Positions 7,930 through 62,677 of a DNA stretch of 64,000 bases are shown in pieces. The position numbers and the translations under genes are program-made. A model generated the notes under the pieces. It worked only from the letters and a program-made list of their open reading frames with translations, did no database searches and was not told the origin of the DNA. The stretch comes from Dictyostelium discoideum (taxonomy: Eukaryota): contig CM000152.2 in assembly GCA_000004695.1 (NCBI GenBank), positions 1,152,001-1,216,000 of the forward strand, in the 5' to 3' direction. Every line of letters begins with the position of its first letter. The stretch's first letter is position 1.

Positions 7930-9600
7930 GAATAATTATTCATATATAGATTCAGTTTTTAGTGAAATAATTGATGTTTTAATAAAATCAAATACTTCAA
8001 ATCCATTTCCTTCTTCAGAATTTTCAAATGGTATATATGAATTTTTCTTCAAAAAATTTATTAAAAATCAACAATCACCAAAATCAATTTTTTATTTATT
8101 CTTTGGATTAAAACCTAAATTAAGAGAATATGATGTAGATTTGGTAATAGATTTATTCCTTAAAGAAAGTTTAGATAATCAATCTTTGTTTTATAGATTA
8201 TTTTCATCTTCATATTTGTGTAATCGAGAATTAGTTTTAAATAATCTTTTTGATAGATTTGTCAAGTCTGAAAATAGGAATTTTAACATAATAGATAAAT
8301 TACTTCGTTTATTATAAGTTCATAGATTTGGTACTATTAAAAAATCAAAAACCTTCCAAACATTGAAATCCTTTGTTAATGGTAATGATTATCCAATTTT
8401 TTTGGATTTCAAGGTCTTATTATCCATTTTTCTCTCAAAAAAACTTGGGTTCAATTTATTTGATCATTTTAAAAATGATTTATTACCAGATTTTTTTAAA
8501 AATTACAATCAGTCTTTCATTATTTTAAAAAACAATTTTCCAAAATTTTTTAACAATTTTTCGCTAAACCATTATAATGCAGAGCCTTTATTAGTGTAAG
8601 TTTAATACATGATAAAATAAAATAATAATAATAATCTTTATTTATTAATTGTTCTTTTTTTTTTTTTTTAAAAATTAATTCCAGTTTATTAAATTCAAAT
8701 GGTTGGACCATCTTCAATAGTACCATCAAAAATTTTAGTTAATTACTTAAATCAATTTCTAATAATTTCTGAATCAATTGAAGAACCAATTTTTACTTCA
8801 AATTTTCAAGTTTTTTGTACAGTTTGTAATACTCTAACTAAATCAAATCCAATAATATTTGAATTTTCAGTAAATCGATCAAATGATATACAAAGTTGTG
8901 TTGAAAATAGTTTATACAAGTAAACTGGTCAAATTGAATTTTGTAAAAATTGTAAAAAAGATAATATTGGAAGACTATCTTTAAATAATATTCCATCACA
9001 TTTATTAATCTCTATTGATAGAGTAAAAAATGGTGAAATTTCATTCCAATCATTCAATTTAATTGAAAAAATAAGTATTGGTGATTTTAGTTTTATTGGT
9101 AATCCAATTCCATTAAATAATCAATTACATTCAATCATTATGTCAAATGGTGAAAAAAGTTCAATTCATATTAATCAAATTGAAAATAAAGCAATTAGAT
9201 GTACGAGTGGACATATATCATATTAATAGAAATGATTTTTTGGATTATGAAAAAAGAAATTCAATTTTAATAATTTATAAAAATAAAAATAATAACAATA
9301 ACAATACGAATAATATAAATAATAATATTATTTATAATAATAACCAATTTGAAATTATTAAAGATATAAATAATTTTAATAATTTATCCAAACAACAAAT
9401 TATTGATAGTGGTCTCAATAACTATTTGGTTACTTGGGTAAATAAATTACCAATTGGTGAAAATCAACTTTTTGAAATTTCCAAGAATTTAGAGACAAAT
9501 AACATAAATAATTTCAAAAATGCTTTTTCAATTTCAGATTGGGACTCTATCATCAGTACAAATGGTCCCAAGAATATATTTTTAGAATACCTTAGATAAC
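7930..9600 (+). pseudogene. Cluster of frame-shifted ORF fragments (ORFs 8363..8599, 8699..8923, 9147..9599 plus an unlisted 134-codon open frame 7949..8328 that lacks an ATG); possible decayed gene or an unresolved multi-exon gene
   Basis: Coding-like composition lies between two convergent gene ends, but the reading frame switches at least three times and there is no credible initiator. I recognise no conserved domain. A GTAAGT/CCAG intron candidate at 8597..8686 does not restore a single frame. Confidence 0.2.
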
Positions 9601-14856: not shown

Positions 14857-14887
<31 letters not shown>

Positions 14888-26418: not shown

Positions 26419-26607
26419 TTTATATAGTTTATAAAATTAAATTTGTTTAATTTTTTTTTTTTTTTTTTTTCTTGTTGCTTTTGTTTTTTTTATTTAATTT
26501 TATTTTTTATTTTTATTATCATTTTTTTTTTTTATTTTTTTTTTTGATGATCTCAAATTTCCAGATTTTAATAACTAATTTTTTTTATTTTTTTTATTTT
26601 TTTTTTT

Positions 26608-26709
26608 GAAAGAGTGGTAGTGGGTAAAAACTTGTTTGATTTATAAAAACTAGTTTTTTTTTTTGAAAGAGTGGTGGTGGTTAAAAACTTGTTTAATTTA
26701 TAAAAACTA
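26608..26709. repeat. Tandem duplication of a roughly 45-bp unit (26608-26652 and 26665-26709, about 90% identical) with a G-box-like core GAGTGGTAGTGGGT/GAGTGGTGGTGGTT; each copy is preceded by a T-run
   Basis: Direct reading: ...TTTTGAAAGAGTGGTAGTGGGTAAAAACTTGTTTGATTTATAAAAACTAG then TTTTTTTTTTTGAAAGAGTGGTGGTGGTTAAAAACTTGTTTAATTTATAAAAACTAT. The repeat lies 190-290 bp upstream of the minus-strand gene starting at 26418. Confidence 0.7.
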
Positions 26710-27601
26710 TATATAGTTTTTAAGCACCAAAATTTTCAGTTATCAACAAAAAAAAATAAACAAATCTCAATATCTATTCTTAAGATTTGACCTTAACTGC
26801 CAACTTTTTTTTTTTTTATCAAAATAACTTTATTTATTGTTAAACTACAAAAACCCTATTGTAAAATCATGATATTTTTAAAAAAAAAAAAAATTTTAAT
26901 AAAGGACCATATCCATTTTTAAAAAATTTGGTGGCTCTAACAAAAGGAATCTAAAAAATTAAATCAGAGTAGAGAGAGAGAGAAATAATAGTTTATAAAA
27001 AACACTAAATTTAGAAATTATTTTAAAATTTAGAAAATTGGTCAATGTTTCATTAGGCCAAATATATAATTTTTTAAATAAATTCATATAAAATCGAGTA
27101 TATTATTATAAATTATCTTTAATTTTTTTTTTTGGTGATATACAATTTGTTTATAGTTGGGATTTAAAATAAAATGAAAAATAGTTTTTTTTTTTTTATT
27201 TTATTTTTTATTTTTATTTTTTTTATTTATTACAAATCAAATTAATGTTAGTCGGACAATTAAAAATAAAATTTTAATTTGATGAGGCAGTTGGGAAAGA
27301 AGCCATTGTTGCGATACCTATTTTCAGTTGGAATTTGGCAGTATTTAATTATAGAAACATTGTTTGGTCAATGTTTATATAATTAATAAATTTGGAATTA
27401 ATTTTAATGTATAAAAAAATGTTTAGTTAGTATTGTATTCCAATTAATTAATTTTATATAAATATATTAAAATTACTATACATACCACAACTTTTAAAGG
27501 GTTAAATTGTAAAAATAATTTGTAAAATTTTAAAATAAATCATAAGTTAGTGACTCTATCCTATTTTTTTTTTTTTTTTTTAAAGAAAAACTTGGAATTA
27601 C

Positions 27602-29013
27602 TTACTTGTTATTTCTATCTTTGCTCATAAAAATGTAACCATCCATACCCCATGAAGTACCCCATGAGTTTTTAACGATCCAGTAGTTACCAGATGAGGC
27701 CTCAACAGCACCTGAGCCTGAACCTGAACCTGAACCTGAACCTGAGCCAGAACCAGAACCTGATGCTGATGCTTGACCAGAAGCAGAGGTTTGACCTGAT
27801 TGTGAACCGGTGGATTGGCCTGATTGGCTACCTGATTGGGAACCTGATTGAGAACCAGAGGTTGATGAAGCAGCAGATGAAGTTTTACCTGATGATGATG
27901 ATGATGAAGCTTTGCCTGATGATGATGATGAAGCTTTACCTGATGATGATGAGGATGAAGTTTTACCACCAGTTGATGATGATGATGATGATTTACCAGA
28001 TGATGAACCAGATGATGAACTTGAACCTGAACCATAACCAACAACTAAAACACCATGATCAAGTTGGGTTGGAGAACATGCTGGTTCATAGTAGATACCT
28101 GATTCATATAATTGGAAGGATTCATTTGAAGCATCAATTGCAACAGAGACTGGAGCATTGTTTGATGCTGATTGTAATGAAGCTTCAGAACCAGAGGTAA
28201 CATTTTGGTATGAAACAATTTGAGCACCAATGTTTGATGTTTTGAATTTACATTCTTTACCATCTTCGGCAGTGTATGGATAACTACTTTCAGTATCAAT
28301 ACCTTTGTTATTGATGATATATTCAAAGGCAAGAGTCATTAAACCACCTTCACAACCATTGTTACCGTATGATTTTGAACAATCGATCAAGTTTTGTTCA
28401 GATAATGAAACTAAATCTTTTTTTGTTCCAGATGCAATAAAGTGAGCACCTTCAGTTGAACCAGTGGTTGAGAATGACCAGCAGCCACCACATTGACCTT
28501 GATTTTTAATTGGTGTGACAGCACCTTGAGCTCTCCAATCAACAGTTGGGGCTGGGGTGGAGAAGATTTTCTCTTCTTCAGTACCAATGAGGGCTGAACC
28601 ATCGAATGGGGTACCCAAGTAGGTAGTTCTATATTCTTGGTTGGTAATATCAGCGAAAACATTTAAACCCAAAACGGTTTCACCACCTTTTGAATTCCAT
28701 TGGTGTACATAATCCATATTGGATTTGAAGATTTGATAACGAGCATTAAATTCTTCAGAGGAATAAGTTCTAAAAAAAAAAAAAAAAAAAAAAAATTAAA
28801 AATTAAATCCTTAATTATTTGATTAATTTTACTATTTAATTATTTTTGATTATTTAATTTATTTGTTTTTTTTTTTTTTTTTTTTTTTTTTATATACCTT
28901 TGGTGAGCTTGCATCCAGTTGGTGAAAGCATTTCTGTATTGTAATTCAGAGAATTGTTGTTTAGCAGAAGCGTAGCTAACTAATAATAAACAAAGGAATG
29001 ATAAAACTCTCAT
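27602..29013 (-). CDS. Papain-family (C1A, cathepsin L-like) cysteine proteinase with an I29 propeptide and a roughly 110-aa Ser/Gly-rich insert, cprD-G-like; exons 29013..28898 and 28769..27602 (about 427 aa)
   Basis: A signal peptide (MRVLSFLCLLLVSYASA) and propeptide (EEFNARYQIFKSNMDYV) precede the catalytic Cys motif QGQCGGCWSFS, His motif LDHGVLVVGYG and Asn motif YWIVKNSWGTSWG. A (SSSSSGK)n/(SGSQ)n/(SG)n insert lies between the His and Asn motifs. The GTATAT donor at 28897 and TTAG acceptor at 28770 join in phase 2. Confidence 0.8.
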
Positions 29014-30226: not shown

Positions 30227-31696
30227 ATGAACATCGAAATTGGAAATAAGTCTAAAGTTTTATTAACTAGATTATTATCTCAACATGTAAACAAACAACA
30301 TATATTACGATATAGTACCACCAATAAAAAACCAATACCATCTTATAAAAGCAAAACATTTTTGAATAATAATAATAATAACCACAACAATGAAAATAAT
30401 AAAAGATACTTTAGATCAACTTCACCAATACTTTCAGAGAAAAGAGATTTATATGAAGTTTTAGGAGTTTCAAGAGATGCTTCAAAACAAGATATTAAAA
30501 AAGCATTTTATGCTGTAAGTATTTAATAAATAATATATATTTCTTAATTGTTTATAAAAAATTGACAAATAGTAACAATAATATTAATTTATTTATTTTA
30601 GTTAGCAAAAAAATATCATCCAGATACAAATAGAGATGACCCAAATGCACATAAAACATTTGCAGAGATTAGTAATGCCTATGATGTATTATATGATGAT
30701 AAAAAGAGATCAGTTTATGATACAGCAGGACATCAAGGAGCAACACAAGAGAATATGGAACATGGTGGATTCCCAGGTGGTATGGGTGGTCAAAATGTTA
30801 ATCTTGAAGATTTATTTGGAGGTGGATTCGATTTGAATGATTTATTTGGTGGCGGTGGTGGTGGTGGTGGCGGTAAAAAGAGTTCAGTAGGTGCAGATAT
30901 GGAAGTTAATTTACATTTAGATTTTATGGAAGCAGTGAATGGTGCAGAGAAGGATATTTCATTCTATGGTGGTACAAAGTGTACACCATGTGATGGTAGC
31001 GGAGCAAAACCAGGCACAAAGCCACAAACTTGTAAACAATGTGGTGGTACAGGTTCTCAAACTCGTTCCAATGGTTTCTTCCATATGGCAACCAATTGTC
31101 GTGCATGTAAAGGTACAGGTAAGGTCATTAAAGAACCATGTTCAAGTTGCAAAGGTAAGGGTATCACTCAAGGCGAACGTACCGTTAACATCAAAGTACC
31201 AGCAGGTATTAACAATGGTACCACCATCAAATTGGCCGGTGAGGGTGAACCTTCAAAAACTGGTCGTCGTGGTAATCTCTTTGTTCATATCACAGTATCT
31301 GAACATGAATTATTTAGACGTCAAGGTAACGATATTCATTTGGATGTTCCAATAACAATTTCTCAAGCTATCCTTGGTGATACAGTTTCAATTCCAACTC
31401 TATCTGGTGAAGTCGAACTTAAAGTACCAAAAGGTACTCAACCAAATGAAAAACGTGTACTCAAAGGTAAAGGTGTACGTTTTGTAAATTCAACAGAATT
31501 TGGTTCACAATTTGTTCACTTTATCGTTTCAATACCTAAAAATATTAATCAAAAGCAACAAGAACTCATTAAAGAATTTGACCAAGAAGAAAAAAAAAAT
31601 AATGGTCCATTAGATAGTTTATCTCATCCAGTTTTATCTTTTTGGAATAAAGCAATGAAAAGATGGAGAGATTATTCAAATAAATTTAAGAAATAA
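30227..31696 (+). CDS. Mitochondrial type-I DnaJ/Hsp40 (DNAJA3/Mdj1-like) with a J domain, G/F region, four CxxCxGxG zinc-finger repeats and a C-terminal domain; exons 30227..30514 and 30602..31696 (about 460 aa)
   Basis: A presequence-like N-terminus is followed by a J domain split by the intron ([23 protein letters not shown]|[13 protein letters not shown]...KRSVYD). A Gly-rich linker and [24 protein letters not shown] and CSSCKGKG repeats follow. The GTAAGT donor at 30515 and TTTTAG acceptor at 30601 join in phase 0. Confidence 0.8.
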
Positions 31697-35327: not shown

Positions 35328-37572
<2,245 letters not shown>

Positions 37573-38165
37573 TGATTATGATTTTTATAAAATAAAAAAA
37601 ATTGTAATATAGATTTTAAATTGGAAAATAAAAATAAATATAAAGGAAAAAAGGAATTTTTTTAAAAAAAAACAAATAAATAAATAATATTATTATTGTG
37701 TGTTTGAGTATAACCTATTTTTTTATTTTTTTTATTTATTTATTTTTTTTTTTTTTTTAAAAAAAAAAAAATTATATTTAAAAATATATAATAATAGTAA
37801 TGATAATAATAATAATAATGATAAAAATAATAATTGATAATAAATAAATATTTAAATAATAATAATTGTTAGTTATTTTGATAGAGATGATAAATAATTA
37901 TATTATTTTTTTTTTTTTTTATTTGTTTTTTTATTTTTTTTTTTTTTTTTTTTTTTTTAATTAAAAAATTTTTAAAAATTAAAAACAAAATAATAAATTT
38001 TTAAAATATAAAAAAAAAAAATAAAAAATAAAAAAAAAAAAGGGTTAAAAGAGTGGTGAGTGTGGGTGGATTGAGTATGACTAATTTGTGTTTAATTATC
38101 TGTTTTTTATTTATGAATTACTTTTTTGGATTCGCCTTATGTGAGAATGTGAAAAAAAAAAAATT

Positions 38166-38213
<48 letters not shown>

Positions 38214-38388
38214 AAGAGTGATGCTTTTGATTAATTAAAAAAAAAATGCAAATTTACAACAGTTTTCACAAAAAATTTTTTTTTTATGCACCCACCAAAG
38301 TATGAAAGTTTTAAAGTCATCAAAATTTTTTAATTTGAAGAATTAAAAAAAAAAAAAGAAAAAAAAAAAAATTGGTGAAAAAAAAATA

Positions 38389-38449
<61 letters not shown>

Positions 38450-38539
38450 AAAATTACACAAATTTTAAAATTAAATATAAAAATATTAATGATGACGGAT
38501 ATCCGATTGAGTGTGTGGTTGTGAATTGCATAAATAAAA

Positions 38540-38580
<41 letters not shown>

Positions 38581-38859
38581 GTGGGTGTGGTGTGGTATTT
38601 ATTTAAACAATTGCCAAATTATTATTTATTATTGAAAAGTATTGGTTTCCAAAATGAATTAAAAATCTATTGATTCGCTAATGCAATATATCTACATACA
38701 ATGTAGCATATGTATTGTTTTATTTTTGGTGGTATATATTTGTGTGTGTGTATATATGTGTGTGTGCATATGAGTGAAAATGAGTGGAAATGAGTTGTTT
38801 TTAAACATTGTGATATATATTTATTTCTAAAATTAAAATTTAGTCCTTACTTTTTTATT

Positions 38860-40385: not shown

Positions 40386-41519
40386 TTATAATAGATTTCT
40401 TTGTTTTAACCATTGAATATTTTCATTAATCATATATTCTAAAGTTTGAGATTTAAAATTTAATTGGTTATTTGCTTTGGTTGAATCGATTACAAAATTA
40501 ACACTTTGAATACAAGAGAGGAAGAAAGATTGATAAGGTGTTGGACGTGGTTTTGATTTCGATGCTTTTGTAGTTTTAAAATCATCATCCGCTAAAGAAT
40601 CGGTTGCTTCTGATGAAATTGGTTTAATAGTGGTTGAAGTGGTTGTGGTTGAAGTTCTGCCAAACCATTTGGCCATTAAATCATTCATTTTACCTGTTAG
40701 AATATATTTCAATGGGGAAACGGCAACAACAGGTTTTTCAATCGAGAGTTGAAATAAAACTTGTTCATAAAGTTCCTTCCAACTGATCAATGTACCACCT
40801 ATACAATAGTCACTTCCATTTGGTGCAACCTGTGCTGCTGTTATATGAGCCTTGGCAACCTCGTCCGCTGATGAAAAGTTGGTTTTACCTACGCCCACTG
40901 ACACAGTTTGAGAAGCTTGATGAGCGACCATTAATATAAACGAGCCAACACTATTTTCATCATATTTTCCAATGATAAAGCCCGGTGAGATGATCACCGC
41001 CTCCAATCCCCTACGTATGGCATCCTCCACATATAGCTCGCCAATTCTCTTTGTACGCGAATAACCAGACCTTGGTAGATTCTCTTTTGGGCATTGTTCA
41101 TTGATGATTCTATCTTTTACATCGTAGCATGCTATTGTGCTTGTGTAAATCAATCTTTTTACACCCTTTTTGAAACATGCCTCTACAACATTGGCAGTGC
41201 CATTTACATTGGTTTCGTATTGTTGAATTTGTTGTTCCTTCATTGATTGTTGTGATTCACTTGCATCTAAATCAATGAGAGCTGCAGCATGAAAACAGTA
41301 AAGACATTCATCTGGTATACCTTTTAACAATGATTTATAATTTGTAACATCACCTTTAACCAATATCAATTGATCTTGTTTATTCAATCTCTTTGCTATT
41401 GAATTTAATTCTAATACTTTATTCTTATTTCTATATAATGCATAAACTTGATATCCTTGAATTAATAATTGTTCAACTATATTACATCCTAAAAATCCAG
41501 TTGACCCTGTTACAAAACA

Positions 41520-41591
<72 letters not shown>

Positions 41592-41618
41592 GTTATTTAT
41601 ATTTATATTTTCACTCAT
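40386..41618 (-). CDS. NAD(P)-dependent epimerase/dehydratase (extended SDR, 3beta-HSD/cinnamoyl-CoA-reductase-like) with a poly-Asn N-terminus, single exon, 410 aa
   Basis: Rossmann motif CFVTGSTGFLGCNIVEQLL, the catalytic YxxxK in SGYSRTKRIGE, and overall extended-SDR architecture. Confidence 0.65.
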
Positions 41619-43937: not shown

Positions 43938-44416
43938 ATAATATTTTTTTGGAATAAAAAAAAAAAAAAAAACACATCGATTTCATAAATATTTTTTTTA
44001 TTTTTGTTTTTTTTTTATTTATTTATTAATATAAATTTATTTATTTTATTTATTTATTTATTTTTTTAAAAAAAAAAAAGTCCTAAATTGGGGTTTTTAA
44101 GTTTCATTTATTTTTATTTATTCATTTTATTTTATTCAATTATTTTAAATTATAATTTTTTATTTTTATTTTTTTTTTTACTTAATTATATGATATTTTA
44201 CAAAAATTGTGGGAATTTGTGTTTTTAATTATTAATTCATTAAAAAAGGTAAAAACAAGCAATATGTTTTGAAAAGTTAAAAAAAAAAAATTTAAAAAGG
44301 AATTTAATAATTTTTTTTTTTTTTTTGTCCCACAGAGGAATTGTTCAAACCAAGAGTACTAATAGTTCCTTTTTTTATTTTTTTATTATTAAAAAATTTA
44401 AAAAATTATTTGTTGA

Positions 44417-44450
<34 letters not shown>

Positions 44451-45001
44451 ATTAAAAAATCATTTGTGTTTAGAAAAAAAAAAAAAAAAAAAAACACATA
44501 CTACAGCTTATTTATTATTTGTATAAAAAAAAAATAAAAAAATAAACAAATTTATTTGTCCATATTGTTATGTGAGTACAAACAAATAATTAAATAAATT
44601 ATATTCACACACTCACACTTCACACATAACACCACAAACAAATTAATATCATTCACTACTCATTTATTTTCCCACTCTTTTTCATTATTATTTCTTCTCA
44701 CACTAATTTCAAAGTACCACTACCATTTTTTTTTTTTTTTTTTTTTTTTTTATTATTATAATAATAATTAACAAAATTTTTTAATTGTAAAAACACTCAA
44801 CTAATACTATTATTATTGAGATATTATTGTTTTTTTGTATTGTTTTTTTTTTTTTTTTATATTGAACACACTTTACAAAAAAAAAAAAATAATAATAAAT
44901 TACTAATAATCTTACCTTCAAACTATATTATAGTTATTTATTTATTTTTTTTTTTTCGAAAAAAATATTATTATTAGTTTCTATATGATTTAATATTAAA
45001 A

Positions 45002-48000: not shown

Positions 48001-51000
48001 GTAATTTCTTTAGTTGTGATATCTCTTCTCCAGTTGATACTTCAAATAGGCCTTCATGTAGTTCTCTTTTCTCTTCTGCAACTTTACAAACTTTGGGTAG
48101 TTCTCCAAGATGTGAATATACTGCTTCAAACATTCTAATGGTTACATTGGGTAGTGGTGAAAGTGTATCAGTTGGCCAACAATTGGAATTTTCTCAAGGT
48201 GGAATCACTTCAAAAGATGGTAGTAAGAATAATTATCAAACTATAACATTGGAACCACCACAAGATTCAACTCCAGTGGTAGATATTAAAGCTCCAAATG
48301 TTTTAGATTCATGTAGTCCATTGGTATTAGATGCTAGTCATTCAAAAGGTGGTAATGGAAAAGCATTAACCTATGATTGGTCGGTTAGTGGGGCAGATAC
48401 AAACACTCAATTAAATAATCTATTGGATCAAAATAATGCAACCATAACAATTCCAAATGATCTTTTGTCATCTGGTCAAACTTATACTTTTACACTTAAA
48501 ATCACAAATTGGTTAAAGAAATCTGATAGCGCAAGTGTTTCAGTAACAAAGAAAGAGGGTGAAGTTTTAGATGTAACAATTCAAGGTCCAAGTATTCATC
48601 GTATGGGTGCAATTGATCTAACTCTTAAAGGTAATGCTTCAGTTTCAAGTTGTTCAGTTGATGGCGCTTCACAAAACACCAACACAATCAAATATAAATG
48701 GTCAATTGTTCCAGAGATTCAATTGGCAAGTTCAAAAGATTATACAGGTCCAACTTTAAATATTCCTTCAAGTAAATGGGTTTATGATACAACTTATGTT
48801 ATTACATTAACTGCAACCTCTGGTAAAGAGACAAACTACGATAATGTTACAGTTATCATTTCAAAGAAACCAATCACTGCAGTAATTGATGGAGCCGATA
48901 AAGAATTCCCATTAAATACTTTAATAACTTTAGATGCTTCAAAATCTTTTGATCCAACAACTACTTCAACAGTTTCCAAAGAACTTGATGATTCAACCTC
49001 TACACAACAACAATCATTTACTTATGCATGGAGATGTATCAATAAAAGTGGCAAAGATTGCGGATTAAATTTAGAATCTGAACCAATTATTACATTTAAC
49101 TCTTCAAGATTGAATGTTGGTGTTTTCCATTTCTCTGTTGATGTTACCCCAAATGGTGATGCCACAAGAAGTGGTTCTGCTAGTGCCACTGTTACCATTG
49201 TAAATACTCCAGTAATTGATGTTATTATCTCACCATTACCAACAACCATTGATCCAACTCAAAAATTGGTACTCTATACAGTAGTTAGTGGTAATGATGC
49301 ATCTTCATCAAATTTAACCTATGAATGGAATATGCTCGAAGGTACTCTTGAACTTCCATTAAAACAAGCCTATAGTACCCCAATGAATAGTAGAAATTTG
49401 GTATTAAAGGCTGGTGCACTCGGTTCAAAAGTTGTCTATAGATTTTCAGTAGATGTTAAAAATAAGAAAACTGGTGCCACTGGTAAAGCAATGGTAACAT
49501 TCACCACTGAAGCAATCCCCCAAGGTGGTGATATCACTTGTTTAACAACAAGTGGTGATGTTACCGATACCTATTCAATTACAATGGGCGATCAATGGAC
49601 TGATAATTCTGGTATTAAATCCTACAATTTCCGTTATCGTGTAGGTAGTGGCCCAGCAATCGCACTAAGTGAATCCTCCTCTGATAATTCTATCTCTACA
49701 ATTCTTCCACCAGGTCAAATTACAATAATTGGTTATGTAACTTCAAATGATGGTATCACTGCAAGTAAATCATGTAAAATTCAAGTAAAAGAAGCAAGCA
49801 ACATTGAGGAAGCAATCAACTTTTTAAGTACAACTATAACCAATCCAGATGTTTCACTTTATCAACTTAGTGTAGCATTGAAAATTGCCAATTCATTGGT
49901 TCCTGAAACTTTGAGATTAGCCAAGGCATCATCAAAGAATGTTGTTTCAGAAACTGATGAACAATTCCAAGTTATAATGCCAGAAACTCCACAATCTGCA
50001 AATAAAGTTGTATTTTCAAAGAAACCAACCAATCCATACCTTGAACAACAAGAAGAAACAAAACAATTTGATCAACCAACAGTAAATAAGAAGATGTCAG
50101 CAGCTGCAGTTGCCACTCAAATATCTCAATTTAAAGCCAATGGTATTCGTCAAGTAATGGACCAGGTTGTTAAACAAAAAAAACAACTCTCAAACTATGG
50201 TATTTCAACAGTTGTCGATTTGATATCAACCTCTACAGATACTTCAGCAGTTGTTCATCCATCAACTCTTAAAGAATCAATGAATATTATGAAAGTAGTT
50301 AGTCCAATGATGGTTAAATCACAAGTTTTACCAAGTGATTTCATTTTATCTGTTAACTATTTAAGTAATGTCAATCAACAAGTCATTGGTCAACAATCAA
50401 ATATCACTCAAGGTAAAACTGCACCAACCTATGCTGATATGGTTTATAATGTTTCTTCAGACATTTTAGTGGTATCCAATTCATTGGCAGATGGTATTCT
50501 TCAAAGAACTGCAATTGGTGAAGAACCATTTACAGTTGCAAGTGATAAAGGTTTCTCGATTACAACATTTAAAACTCTACATATGGAATTAAGTAAGAGT
50601 GGTCAATCGATTGGTTTCAAAAAGGATGATGAAGGTCAATCTCTTGATGGTGAAAAACTTGCTTTCACTCCAAAATTCAGTATTCCATCAAGTGTTTTAT
50701 CAAAGAATAAATTAAAACAAACCTCTGAAATCACTGGTAAACTAATTACAGTTCCATCAAATATTCATTTCAATCATAAATCTGATCAAACCATTTTCCC
50801 AAAAACTGTTTCACTTGAACTTTTCAATGGTGGCTCTCAATTATCAATCAATGGCCTTAAAGATCAAATTATCATTGATATGGGAAAACATTCACCACCA
50901 AAAGATAAAGAATTTAAATGTGGTTGGTGGAGCTCCAATAAAAAAGAATGGTTAACAGATGGTTGTTCAACCCATAAAGTAGATGGTAATATTCAATGTA

Positions 51001-59944: not shown

Positions 59945-61733
59945 TTTATTTTATTTTATTTTTTATTTTATTTTTTTTTTTTTTATTTTATTTTTATTTT
60001 TTATTTTTATTTTTATTTTTTTTGACATGGTTTGTCATGTTTGCGCATTTTTGATAATAAAAAAAAAAAAAAATCTTAAGTTTTTCAAATAAAAATAAAG
60101 ATTTTTTTTTTTTATTTTTTTTTTATTTTTTTTTATTTTTTTTTTTATTTTTTTTTTTTATTTTTTTTTTTGGCAGTATAAATTTTTTTATTTATTTTTT
60201 ATTTCCAATTAAAAAAAAAACAAAAAAAAAAAAAAAAACTTTATAGCCTTTAAAGTATGTACATGATTTGATTATCTTTTTTTATTTATTTTTTTTTTTC
60301 ATTTTTTATTTTTTTTAGATTATTTTTATTGTTAAAACTTCTTAAAAATAAGCAACCAACAAGGTGTTTGCACACACATGCCCCATTATTTTTTGTGAAA
60401 ATGAAACAACAACGGTTTCTTTTCCTAATTTGGTTGTTTTTTTTTTTTAAATTTTTTTTTTTATTTTTTTTTTTTTAAAATTTTTTTTTTTAAAATTTTT
60501 TTTTTTTAATGTTTTTATTTTTTTATTTTTGTTAAAAATTTTTGTCTTAGCCAGCACCCCAACAATATTCATTTTCATTCCAAAGGTTTATTAATAAAAT
60601 AAAAAAAATAAATAAATAAAAATAATAATAAAAATTTATAATTAAAGTAACTAAAAAATAAAAAAATAAATAATAAAACATAAAAAAATAAATAATAATA
60701 ATAAAATTTCAAAAATCAAAAGAAAATCAAAAAAAAAAAACAAAATAATTATATTTTTTCAAGTAAGAGAATAAATTATTGTTAATATCAATATTTCACC
60801 AAAGCTTTCTTTAATTAGCAGCTTTGATTTTTTTTTTTTTCTTTTTTTTTTTTTTATTTTTTATTTTTTTTTTTTTTTATTATCAATTGCAGATACACAA
60901 TAAAAACATAACCACCACCACTACTACCACTACCACTACCAAAATCAAATACATTTACATCATATATTATCAAATTCAGATTGTTGGAAAAACTCACAAA
61001 AAAAAAATCAAAATTATCATTTTCTTCTTGGGGGTTTGTTAAATTTATTTTTTATTTTTATTTTTTTTTTTTTTTACTTTTATTTGCTTACTTGTGTGGT
61101 ATTGTGTTGAATTCAACACATCAAAAGCGTTTATCATAATGCCACACTAAATTTAGTGGCAATAAAAATAAATATCCATGATTGCAACAGTAATAAAAAA
61201 AGGAAAAATAAAAAAAAATAAACCACTTTTTTTTTTTATTTTTTATTTTTTTTTATTATTTTTTTTTTTTTTTGCCCATTATTAGATATAAAAAAAATTA
61301 ATAAAATTAATAAAATTAAAAAAAAAAAAAAAAAAAAAAATGGGGGTGGATAGTTTAATTTGATATATCAAATTTGACAATCGCCCCCACTTCATTAAAA
61401 AAAAAAAAAATAATAATAATTTTTTCTACCCCCTCCTCACACGCACTTTATTGTTTTTTTTTTCAATAATTATATTTTTAATTTAATTTAATTTAATTTT
61501 TATTTTTATTTTTTTTATTTTCATTTTTTTTATTATTATTTTTTTCTTTATTAATTGAGTTTTTTTTTTTTTTTATTTTTTTAATTTCATTTGATTTCAT
61601 ACTTTTTATTATTATAAATTTTTTTTTTAGATTCTCTCTAACATTTTTTTTTAATTAAATTTTCAAAAACAAATAAATAAAATATTAATACAAAAAGTAG
61701 TAAAAAACTTTCAAACAACATCAAAAATAAAAA

Positions 61734-62172: not shown

Positions 62173-62578
62173 AACTTTGTACATATCGAAGAAAATAATA
62201 ATAATAATAATAACTTTACCAATTCAATTTTTTGTTGTAAATATTTCATAAAACAAAAACAAAAAGACAAAAAAAAAAAAATAATAATAATCATAATAAT
62301 TAAGCAAGAGGTATAAGTAAATTCTTGTATTTCTTGAAAAATGTGCATTTTTTTTATTGTAAATAATTAATATCAAACAATACATCCAATGATAAGGGAT
62401 TTATAATTTCTATCGCTTGTAAATAATTTTTTAAAAATAAAAAATAAAAAAAAAAATAAAAAAATAAAAAAATAAAAAAATAAAAAAAAAATAAACAATA
62501 CTCCCATCAAACGTACTTTAAAACTTCTTTTTCTTTTTTTTTTTTTTTTTTTATTTTTTTATTTTATCGTTTTAATTT

Positions 62579-62626
<48 letters not shown>

Positions 62627-62677
62627 TCGGGGTGATTTAATTTCATTTTTTTATTTTTTTCATTATGTTTTTCAAAA

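Follow-up and report, generated by a model that had tools for sequence, protein, structure and literature searches.

A tandem repeat of 57-bp units, each carrying a GT-rich box, lies upstream of the Dictyostelium discoideum gene DDB_G0278787 in a 64,000-nt stretch of contig CM000152.2 (assembly GCA_000004695.1, positions 1,152,001 to 1,216,000; about 22% G+C), hereafter the window, in which all coordinates below are counted. We interpret this repeat as a cis-regulatory module that was duplicated long ago and whose GT-rich box would be a factor-binding element of the G-box/CA-rich class, a reading to which we assign a probability of roughly one half. The repeat was first pointed out in an earlier note made from the letters alone, which took it for a tandemly duplicated promoter module with a G-box core. 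Comparison with related genomes confirms this observation, with corrections, and puts it on slightly firmer ground than the letters alone could give, namely an old duplication, a conserved core and three conserved loci.

Tandem Repeats Finder (TRF) returned a 2.0-copy repeat at 26597-26709 with a period of 57, 94% matches, no indels and a score of 205, the top-scoring long-period repeat of the window. Direct comparison of the two units found 53 of 57 positions identical, which bears out the two roughly 90%-identical tandem copies originally reported. The 45-bp unit given for them does not hold, as the true period is 57 bp: each unit consists of T11 and 46 nt, so that the supposed 45-bp unit corresponds to the non-T part of the 57-bp unit. 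Within each unit, T11 is followed by GAAAGAGTGGT(A/G)GTGG(G/T)T and then by an A/T-rich tail, AAAAACTTGTTT(G/A)ATTTATAAAAACTA. The box, GAAAGAGTGGT(A/G/T)GTGGGT, reads ACCCAC(T/C/A)ACCACTCTTTC on the sense strand of the gene, where the gene-proximal unit as a whole runs TATAAAT…GTTTTT-ACCCACTACCACTCTTTC-A11. The copies stand head-to-tail without a spacer and their number differs between relatives, as in a tandem (minisatellite-type) duplication, and the whole 57-bp unit has no additional copy anywhere in the window. The location upstream of the minus-strand gene was correctly described, the measured distance from the ATG at 26418 being 180-290 bp rather than 190-290 bp.

The age of the duplication was read from syntenic loci of six relatives, anchored on the neighbouring single-copy Elp4 gene. 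A neighbour-joining tree of the Elp4 coding sequence (CDS) has the topology (D. firmibasis,(D. citrinum,(ACTFIZ,(ACTFIY,(window,(ACTFIW,ACTFIR)))))), with pairwise divergences that range from 1.3 to 6% among members of the D. discoideum complex and reach 8% against D. citrinum and 10% against D. firmibasis; the window itself is 99.6% identical over 21 kb to chromosome record CM142509.1 (GCA_054883475.1), with an identical repeat region. Two boxes are present in four of the five genomes of the complex, with a period of 57 in the window, 58 in ACTFIW and 35 in ACTFIY, where the proximal unit has lost its tail and 6 nt are inserted in the distal core. In ACTFIZ the boxes GGTGCTGGTGGGT and GAAAGAGTGGTTGTGGGT stand about 42 bp apart and both tails are mostly gone. 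ACTFIR has one box in a single unit; since its sister ACTFIW carries two copies, the simplest account is that ACTFIR lost one secondarily through unequal exchange. With this loss allowed for, the distribution of copy states on the tree places the duplication before the D. discoideum complex. Outside the complex, D. citrinum has a single box, AGAGTGGTTTTTTGTGGTATTGG, directly after a conserved CAAATTTACAGAT, and thereby retains AGAGTGGT…GTGGTATTGG in a promoter that otherwise barely aligns.

Across these lineages the GT-rich cores persist, and the AT-rich tails have been deleted differently in each. In a five-genome alignment in which 43% of window positions are invariant as background, 15 of the 18 columns of the distal core are invariant, as against 0 of 28 in both tails. 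The core of unit 1 is identical in ACTFIW, ACTFIY and the single ACTFIR copy, and the two changes in the core of unit 2 (A>G and GGG>GGT) are restricted to the lineage of the window, comprising the window and assembly GCA_054883475.1. About ten more blocks of the same intergenic region are equally conserved, including 26546-26566 and 26762-26803 (AAATCTC…GACCTTAACT). The former, which lies between the repeat and the ATG, is kept in the window, GCA_054883475.1, ACTFIR, ACTFIW, ACTFIY and D. citrinum (as ATCACAAATTTACAGAT) and is shortened in ACTFIZ; it may serve as a GtaC site, as the region where transcription starts, or as both. As a separate observation, blocks 26762-26803 and 27105-27145 are near-invariant in five genomes (AAATCTCAATATCTATTCTTAAG…GACCTTAACTGCCAA and ATTATAAATTATCTTTAATT…TTGGTGAT, respectively) and are candidates for extra regulatory elements.

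The core also recurs elsewhere in the window. AAAGAGTGGT occurs three times (26609, 26666 and 38048) against about 0.09 expected, and the gapped pattern GAGTGGT-N(0-12)-TGGGT matches at 26612 and 38051 only, against 0.01 expected, with none of 100 shuffles reaching two matches. In AT-rich intergenic DNA, AAAGAGTGG is found only at 26609, 26666, 38048 and 44680 (minus strand) in the 64 kb, and all four places are conserved in related genomes. Four of the six occurrences of AAGAGTGG likewise fall in intergenic DNA of 14-16% G+C (26610, 26667, 38049 and, on the minus strand, 44679); the other two, at 50595 and 52834, lie in coding-type sequence (29-32% G+C) and are irrelevant here. The recurrence first proposed at 38049-38069, between the IPK and SENP8 genes, is thus real in that AAAGAGTGGT starts at 38048 within a conserved block, but its alignment with the repeat needs two small insertions, and for that reason an ungapped 17-mer search with 3 mismatches missed it. 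Among the matches of that search, 60910 lies inside an ACC-repeat tract and 43814 was set aside as coding sequence for a threonine run. The G-rich words proposed as further instances at 1971-2001 and 61341 exist as described but share only GGGGTGG, not the AAAGAGTGG core. Generic G-box words, held to be conspicuous in this DNA, are not clearly enriched in the window, with 32 occurrences of GGGTG and 23 of GTGGG against about 21 expected. The literature yielded no Dictyostelium paper with AAGAGTGG as a motif.

Orthologous regions for the 38-kb and 44.7-kb sites were fetched via the epimerase gene at 40386-41618. The 112-bp block at the 38-kb site starts with GGGTTAAAAGAGTGGTGAGTGTGGGTGG (core 38048-38069), some 480 bp upstream of the ATG of the IPK-like open reading frame (ORF) at 37572. 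Within the complex 94-108 of its 112 positions are identical, and 98 of 108 match D. citrinum (about 91%), approximately the level of the Elp4 CDS. The core varies only in its middle, reading AAGAGTGGTGAGTGTGGGTGG, with AAGAGTGTGGGTGG in ACTFIZ and AAGAGTGGTGGGTGGTGG in D. citrinum. At the third site the minus strand of the window carries TGGTAGTGGTA (44715-44725), about 35 nt, and then AAAAAGAGTGGG (AAGAGTGG at 44672-44679), so that both halves of the core are present 35 nt apart and in swapped order (ATGGTAGTGGTAC…GAAAAAGAGTGGGAAAATAAG); it lies about 920-960 bp upstream of a plus-strand ORF of 2108 aa (ATG 45639). Together, the promoter duplication, the retention of the core and its conserved recurrences make a shared GT/CA-rich-class cis-element across the three loci plausible. 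At all three, the nearest downstream ORF has the C-rich strand as its sense strand, although three loci are too few for this shared orientation to be significant. A bolder form of the proposal is that AAAGAGTGG together with GTGGGT within a few bases (in sense, ACCCAC…CCACTCTTT) would constitute a distinct, undescribed and orientation-biased motif of the D. discoideum group with a factor of its own, marking co-regulated aggregation-stage genes, with copy number tuning expression; we regard this as unlikely.

The 38-kb and 44.7-kb regions have further features of their own. A second non-coding block between IPK and SENP8, 38213-38345, is identical to D. citrinum at 105 of 127 positions, again close to the conservation of coding sequence, and contains GCACCCACCAAAG. 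The 38-kb blocks gave no Rfam match above noise, no covariation and no intact ORF, and RNAalifold on the 38-kb block returned a weak GU-rich fold without compensatory pairs. A small ORF in that block (MTNLCLIICF…K-run) was rejected as coding, given a 1-nt deletion in D. citrinum and non-synonymous changes in other strains. Upstream of the 2108-aa ORF, 44600-44735 holds a dense plus-strand CA-rich cluster (TTCACACACTCACACTTCACACATAACACCACAAAC … CCCACTCTTTTTC … GTACCACTACCA, then T30) that is largely invariant in four genomes and resembles a classic Dictyostelium CA-rich promoter region.

The GT-rich box is probably an ordinary, previously unnamed transcription-factor binding site, as judged from its conservation in related species and its recurrence in two other conserved promoter blocks. 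It would be bound by a sequence-specific factor recognising Dictyostelium G-box/CA-rich elements, for which GbfA is a candidate, and two copies would give two such sites 35-58 bp apart. The boxes would act as upstream activating elements with neighbouring GATC/GATA sites, through which GtaC would probably act. The GBF consensus has two half-sites; set beside it, the core presents GTGG and GTGGGT, twice, 57 bp apart, and a [TG]G[TG]G[TG]G[TG] 7-mer, compared by eye, has no perfect match in the repeat cores, with TGTGGGT at the 38-kb site. GbfA has been described to bind G-rich motifs in cprB and prespore genes (PMC6598861). Like the G-box/CA-rich elements of cprB, cotC and other cAMP-induced genes, the box is a short G/T-rich (C/A-rich) word present in more than one copy in an A/T-rich promoter, some hundreds of bp upstream of a gene under developmental control. 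In contrast to those elements, its first letters are AAAGAG, with GTGG/GTGGGT in place of long runs of GGGTG or GTGTG, and DDB_G0278787 rises at about 6-7 h in a GtaC-dependent manner. The reading first offered is supported in part: the GT-rich core is evolutionarily retained and occurs at three conserved loci, and membership of the G-box/CA-rich class is plausible.

The GBF-driven, post-aggregative expression suggested by the earlier note, and the co-regulation with IPK/SENP8 or pikA, are hypotheses; what published evidence there is, although scant, points to early, GtaC-dependent expression of DDB_G0278787. The gene is among 561 putative GtaC targets, with promoter binding scores from chromatin immunoprecipitation (ChIP) of 1.65 at starvation sensing, 2.27 in early aggregation and 0 in late aggregation, and with differential-expression scores between gtaC-complemented and knockout cells of 1.78, 4.54 and -1.52 at the same stages, amounting to GtaC-dependent up-regulation in early aggregation (PMC4506546, Supplementary Data 2). 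On these data the promoter is active and under regulation, in favour of the cis-regulatory reading. In filter development it belongs to the class UP_Hr06_gradual and, by column count, probably also to UP_Hr07_gradual (PMC4403905, Additional file 7). The gene appears in no paper's main text, and PMC6198379 and PMC8327917 likewise gave nothing on it in their supplements.

The sequences preferred by GtaC are GATA-like or GATC (PMC4506546). The intergenic region resembles GtaC target promoters in having published GtaC ChIP signal together with GtaC-dependent expression (PMC4506546), and in its motifs, with one GATC (26549, inside the conserved block nearest the ATG) and four TTATC[AT] sites (26516, 26740, 26816 and 27113). 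It differs in that the GT-rich core of the repeat is unlike a GATA/GATC motif, and no GATA-like or GATC motif occurs inside the repeat (26597-26710), such sites being confined to its flanks. Since they lie outside, GtaC, the only factor supported by experiment at this promoter, is most likely bound not in the module but next to it, as at 26516 or 26549.

Several points weigh against the regulatory reading. The promoter of D. firmibasis is too diverged for reliable box homology and yields no alignable copy, only the GT/CA-rich words CCACAAACAC and TTGGTGTGGTTG at a similar distance. Because divergence in the D. discoideum complex is only 3-6% in the Elp4 CDS, the substitution-level invariance of the 18-mer is close to neutral expectation, by our own rough estimate for ungapped sites rather than a tool-computed one. 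Slippage indels also arise less readily in GC-containing, non-repetitive sequence than in AT-rich low-complexity tails, so that the apparent selective retention of the core is partly mutational bias. The distal box, in the lineage to which the window belongs, no longer has its GGG. The statistics on the motif were compiled post hoc and from 64 kb only. Finally, at least three other intergenic places in the window carry two-copy duplications of 47-60 bp that include GC-containing words, so duplication by itself needs no selection.

The likeliest of the alternatives is a neutral, minisatellite-like duplication that arose by slippage or unequal crossing-over between T-runs, with the later deletions as drift and the recurrence of AAAGAGTGG as chance or generic GT-richness. 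The unit is indeed bounded by T11 runs, copy number (1 or 2) and period (35, 42, 57 or 58) vary among close relatives, and the distal core of the window carries private substitutions, all of which neutrality would accommodate, as it would the low divergence in the complex and the other two-copy duplications, found by TRF at 44391-44494, 60101-60204 and 62528-62660. It accounts less readily for the survival of both cores in four of five lineages despite independent tail deletions, for the D. citrinum core kept in an otherwise unalignable promoter, for the same 9-10-mer in two further strongly conserved intergenic blocks, or for two occurrences of the gapped pattern where 0.01 are expected. Retention in D. 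citrinum and recurrence of the core lift the case above neutrality, and we consider the neutral account somewhat unlikely. The three other duplications carry the words TTTGTGGATAG, AGCAGTATAAAT and ATCGGGGTAATTT, respectively.

Another alternative is a duplicated core promoter, in which the repeat would supply a tandem pair of transcription start regions and the C-rich box would be initiator or 5′ untranslated region (UTR) sequence instead of an upstream factor site. Each unit takes the form TATAAAT-N10-T5-ACCCACTACCACTCTTTC-A11 when read on the gene strand, broadly resembling a Dictyostelium TATA box, oligo(dT) stretch and start site, with an A-rich leader after each box down to the ATG, and TATAGTTTTTAA, which reads as a TATA-like TTAAAAACTATA on that strand and belongs to the self-complementary sequence at the distal edge of the repeat, is invariant just upstream of the distal box in five of five genomes. 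However, ACTFIY and ACTFIZ have lost the proximal unit's TATA part, the spacing from TATA to box ranges from 0 to about 26 nt, and TATA-like words are ubiquitous in DNA of 85% A+T. The boxes at 38 kb and 44.7 kb, moreover, lie 480-960 bp from the ATG and are followed by T-runs without a leader. A duplicated core promoter is quite improbable as the explanation of the repeat.

An extremely improbable alternative is a small-RNA gene or non-coding RNA (ncRNA) promoter, with ACCCAC as an upstream sequence element of Dictyostelium (DUSE) about 60 nt upstream of an ncRNA, or with each 46-nt unit as an RNA polymerase III transcript. The minus-strand ACCCACTA does resemble a DUSE, with a CCCA core on the strand facing a conserved block about 60 nt away (26546-26566, some 55-80 nt downstream), and the units are flanked by T-runs. 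Against the published consensus [AT]CCCA[AT]AA (PMC3188802), however, ACCCACTA (copy 1) has 2 mismatches and copy 2 reads AACCACCA; there is no exact W-CCCA-Y-AA match in 26400-27300; and exact DUSE matches in the window number 7 against 9.9 expected, at or below chance. Spacing from box to block falls from about 41 nt in the window to 0 in D. citrinum, and what follows downstream is an A-rich mRNA leader to the ATG with no ncRNA matched. Loss of the AT-rich tail in ACTFIY and ACTFIZ means that no product of unit length is conserved. At the gathering threshold Rfam found no ncRNA in the whole window. ARAGORN found no tRNA. Rfam scans of 26400-27650 and 37850-38650 with E values up to 10 returned at most snoRNA matches at the level of noise (13-16 bits), and no match to any family in 26400-27650. 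The Class I motif CTTACAGC is absent nearby, and its sole exact occurrence in the window, at 30512, was discarded as a Class I RNA, being without any Class I flanking sequence.

The features described are collected in the table below.

Table. Positions of the repeat, its parts and associated features in the window.
Feature	Position	Strand	Basis
Repeat unit 1, gene-proximal	26597-26653	minus	TRF and direct comparison
Unit 1, T11	26597-26607		
Unit 1, GT-rich core GAAAGAGTGGTAGTGGGT	26608-26625		
Unit 1, AT-rich tail AAAAACTTGTTTGATTTATAAAAACTAG	26626-26653		
Repeat unit 2, distal	26654-26710	minus	TRF, direct comparison, five-genome alignment
Unit 2, T11	26654-26664		
Unit 2, core GAAAGAGTGGTGGTGGTT	26665-26682		
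Unit 2, tail	26683-26710		
Self-complementary TAAAAACTATATATAGTTTT, distal repeat edge	26700-26723	none	Direct comparison, alignment
Conserved block GATGATCTCAAATTTCCAGAT between repeat and ATG	26546-26566	minus	15/18 columns invariant
DDB_G0278787 (Q54XR8), hypothetical secreted or membrane protein	25436-26418	minus	ORFs, splice reconstruction
Conserved non-coding block, IPK/SENP8 intergenic region	38041-38152	minus	Pattern matches and comparison with relatives
Third site	44672-44725	plus	Motif searches; block invariant in four genomes

The intergenic region that contains the repeat spans 26419-27273; the 3′ UTR of a neighbouring protease gene takes up its high-numbered end, and its low-numbered end holds the promoter of DDB_G0278787. 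Splice reconstruction of DDB_G0278787 joined exons at 26024-26418 and 25436-25844 through a 6-nt microexon at 25927-25932 (ACCATT), giving a 269-aa product whose exact look-up is KAM9949019.1, clustered with XP_641962.1. Inclusion of the microexon yields the recorded 269-aa protein; the RefSeq model for AX4, which falls in that cluster too, has 267 aa. The protein has no Pfam domain, and a homologue search with exon 1 found none. In D. citrinum (ACTFIV) the orthologue is called at only 146 aa, and at locus 9380-9470 there is no ATG where the signal-peptide start codon would correspond, so that this gene may start at an internal Met or be decaying at that end.

The other neighbour encodes a papain-family cysteine protease on the minus strand. 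Its sequence extends past the ORF stop at 27602, and its C-terminus needs a 5-nt microexon TTGTG (27486-27490) and a 44-nt last exon (27274-27317), ending in …DRNNNCGIATMASFPTASSN before the stop codon; these two small exons restore the family C-terminus, …NNNCGIATMASFPTASSN and stop. D. citrinum conserves this microexon together with its flanking sequence. The automated protease call in GCA_054883475.1 (427 aa, fetched locus 14863-16270) appears to be without both exons. A plus-strand 23-aa ORF at 27175 was rejected as coding, as a 2-nt indel in ACTFIR speaks against it. The exact 13-mer TTGGTCAATGTTT occurs both at 27038-27050, in the intergenic region, and at 27364-27376, in a protease intron, 326 bp apart; both copies differ in ACTFIR, so this repeat may be chance.

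We regard the box as a candidate new word in a known class of promoter elements. Should it prove to be a genuine factor site, the few cis-elements known from Dictyostelium would gain a word that is both defined and conserved; should the duplication be neutral, the repeat is simply one more of the many short tandem duplications found in A/T-rich intergenic DNA. The sister strains ACTFIR, with one copy, and ACTFIW, with two, differ by only about 1.3% in the Elp4 CDS and thus form a natural experiment, a contrast that would let the copy number of a promoter module be related to a GtaC-dependent gene of early development.

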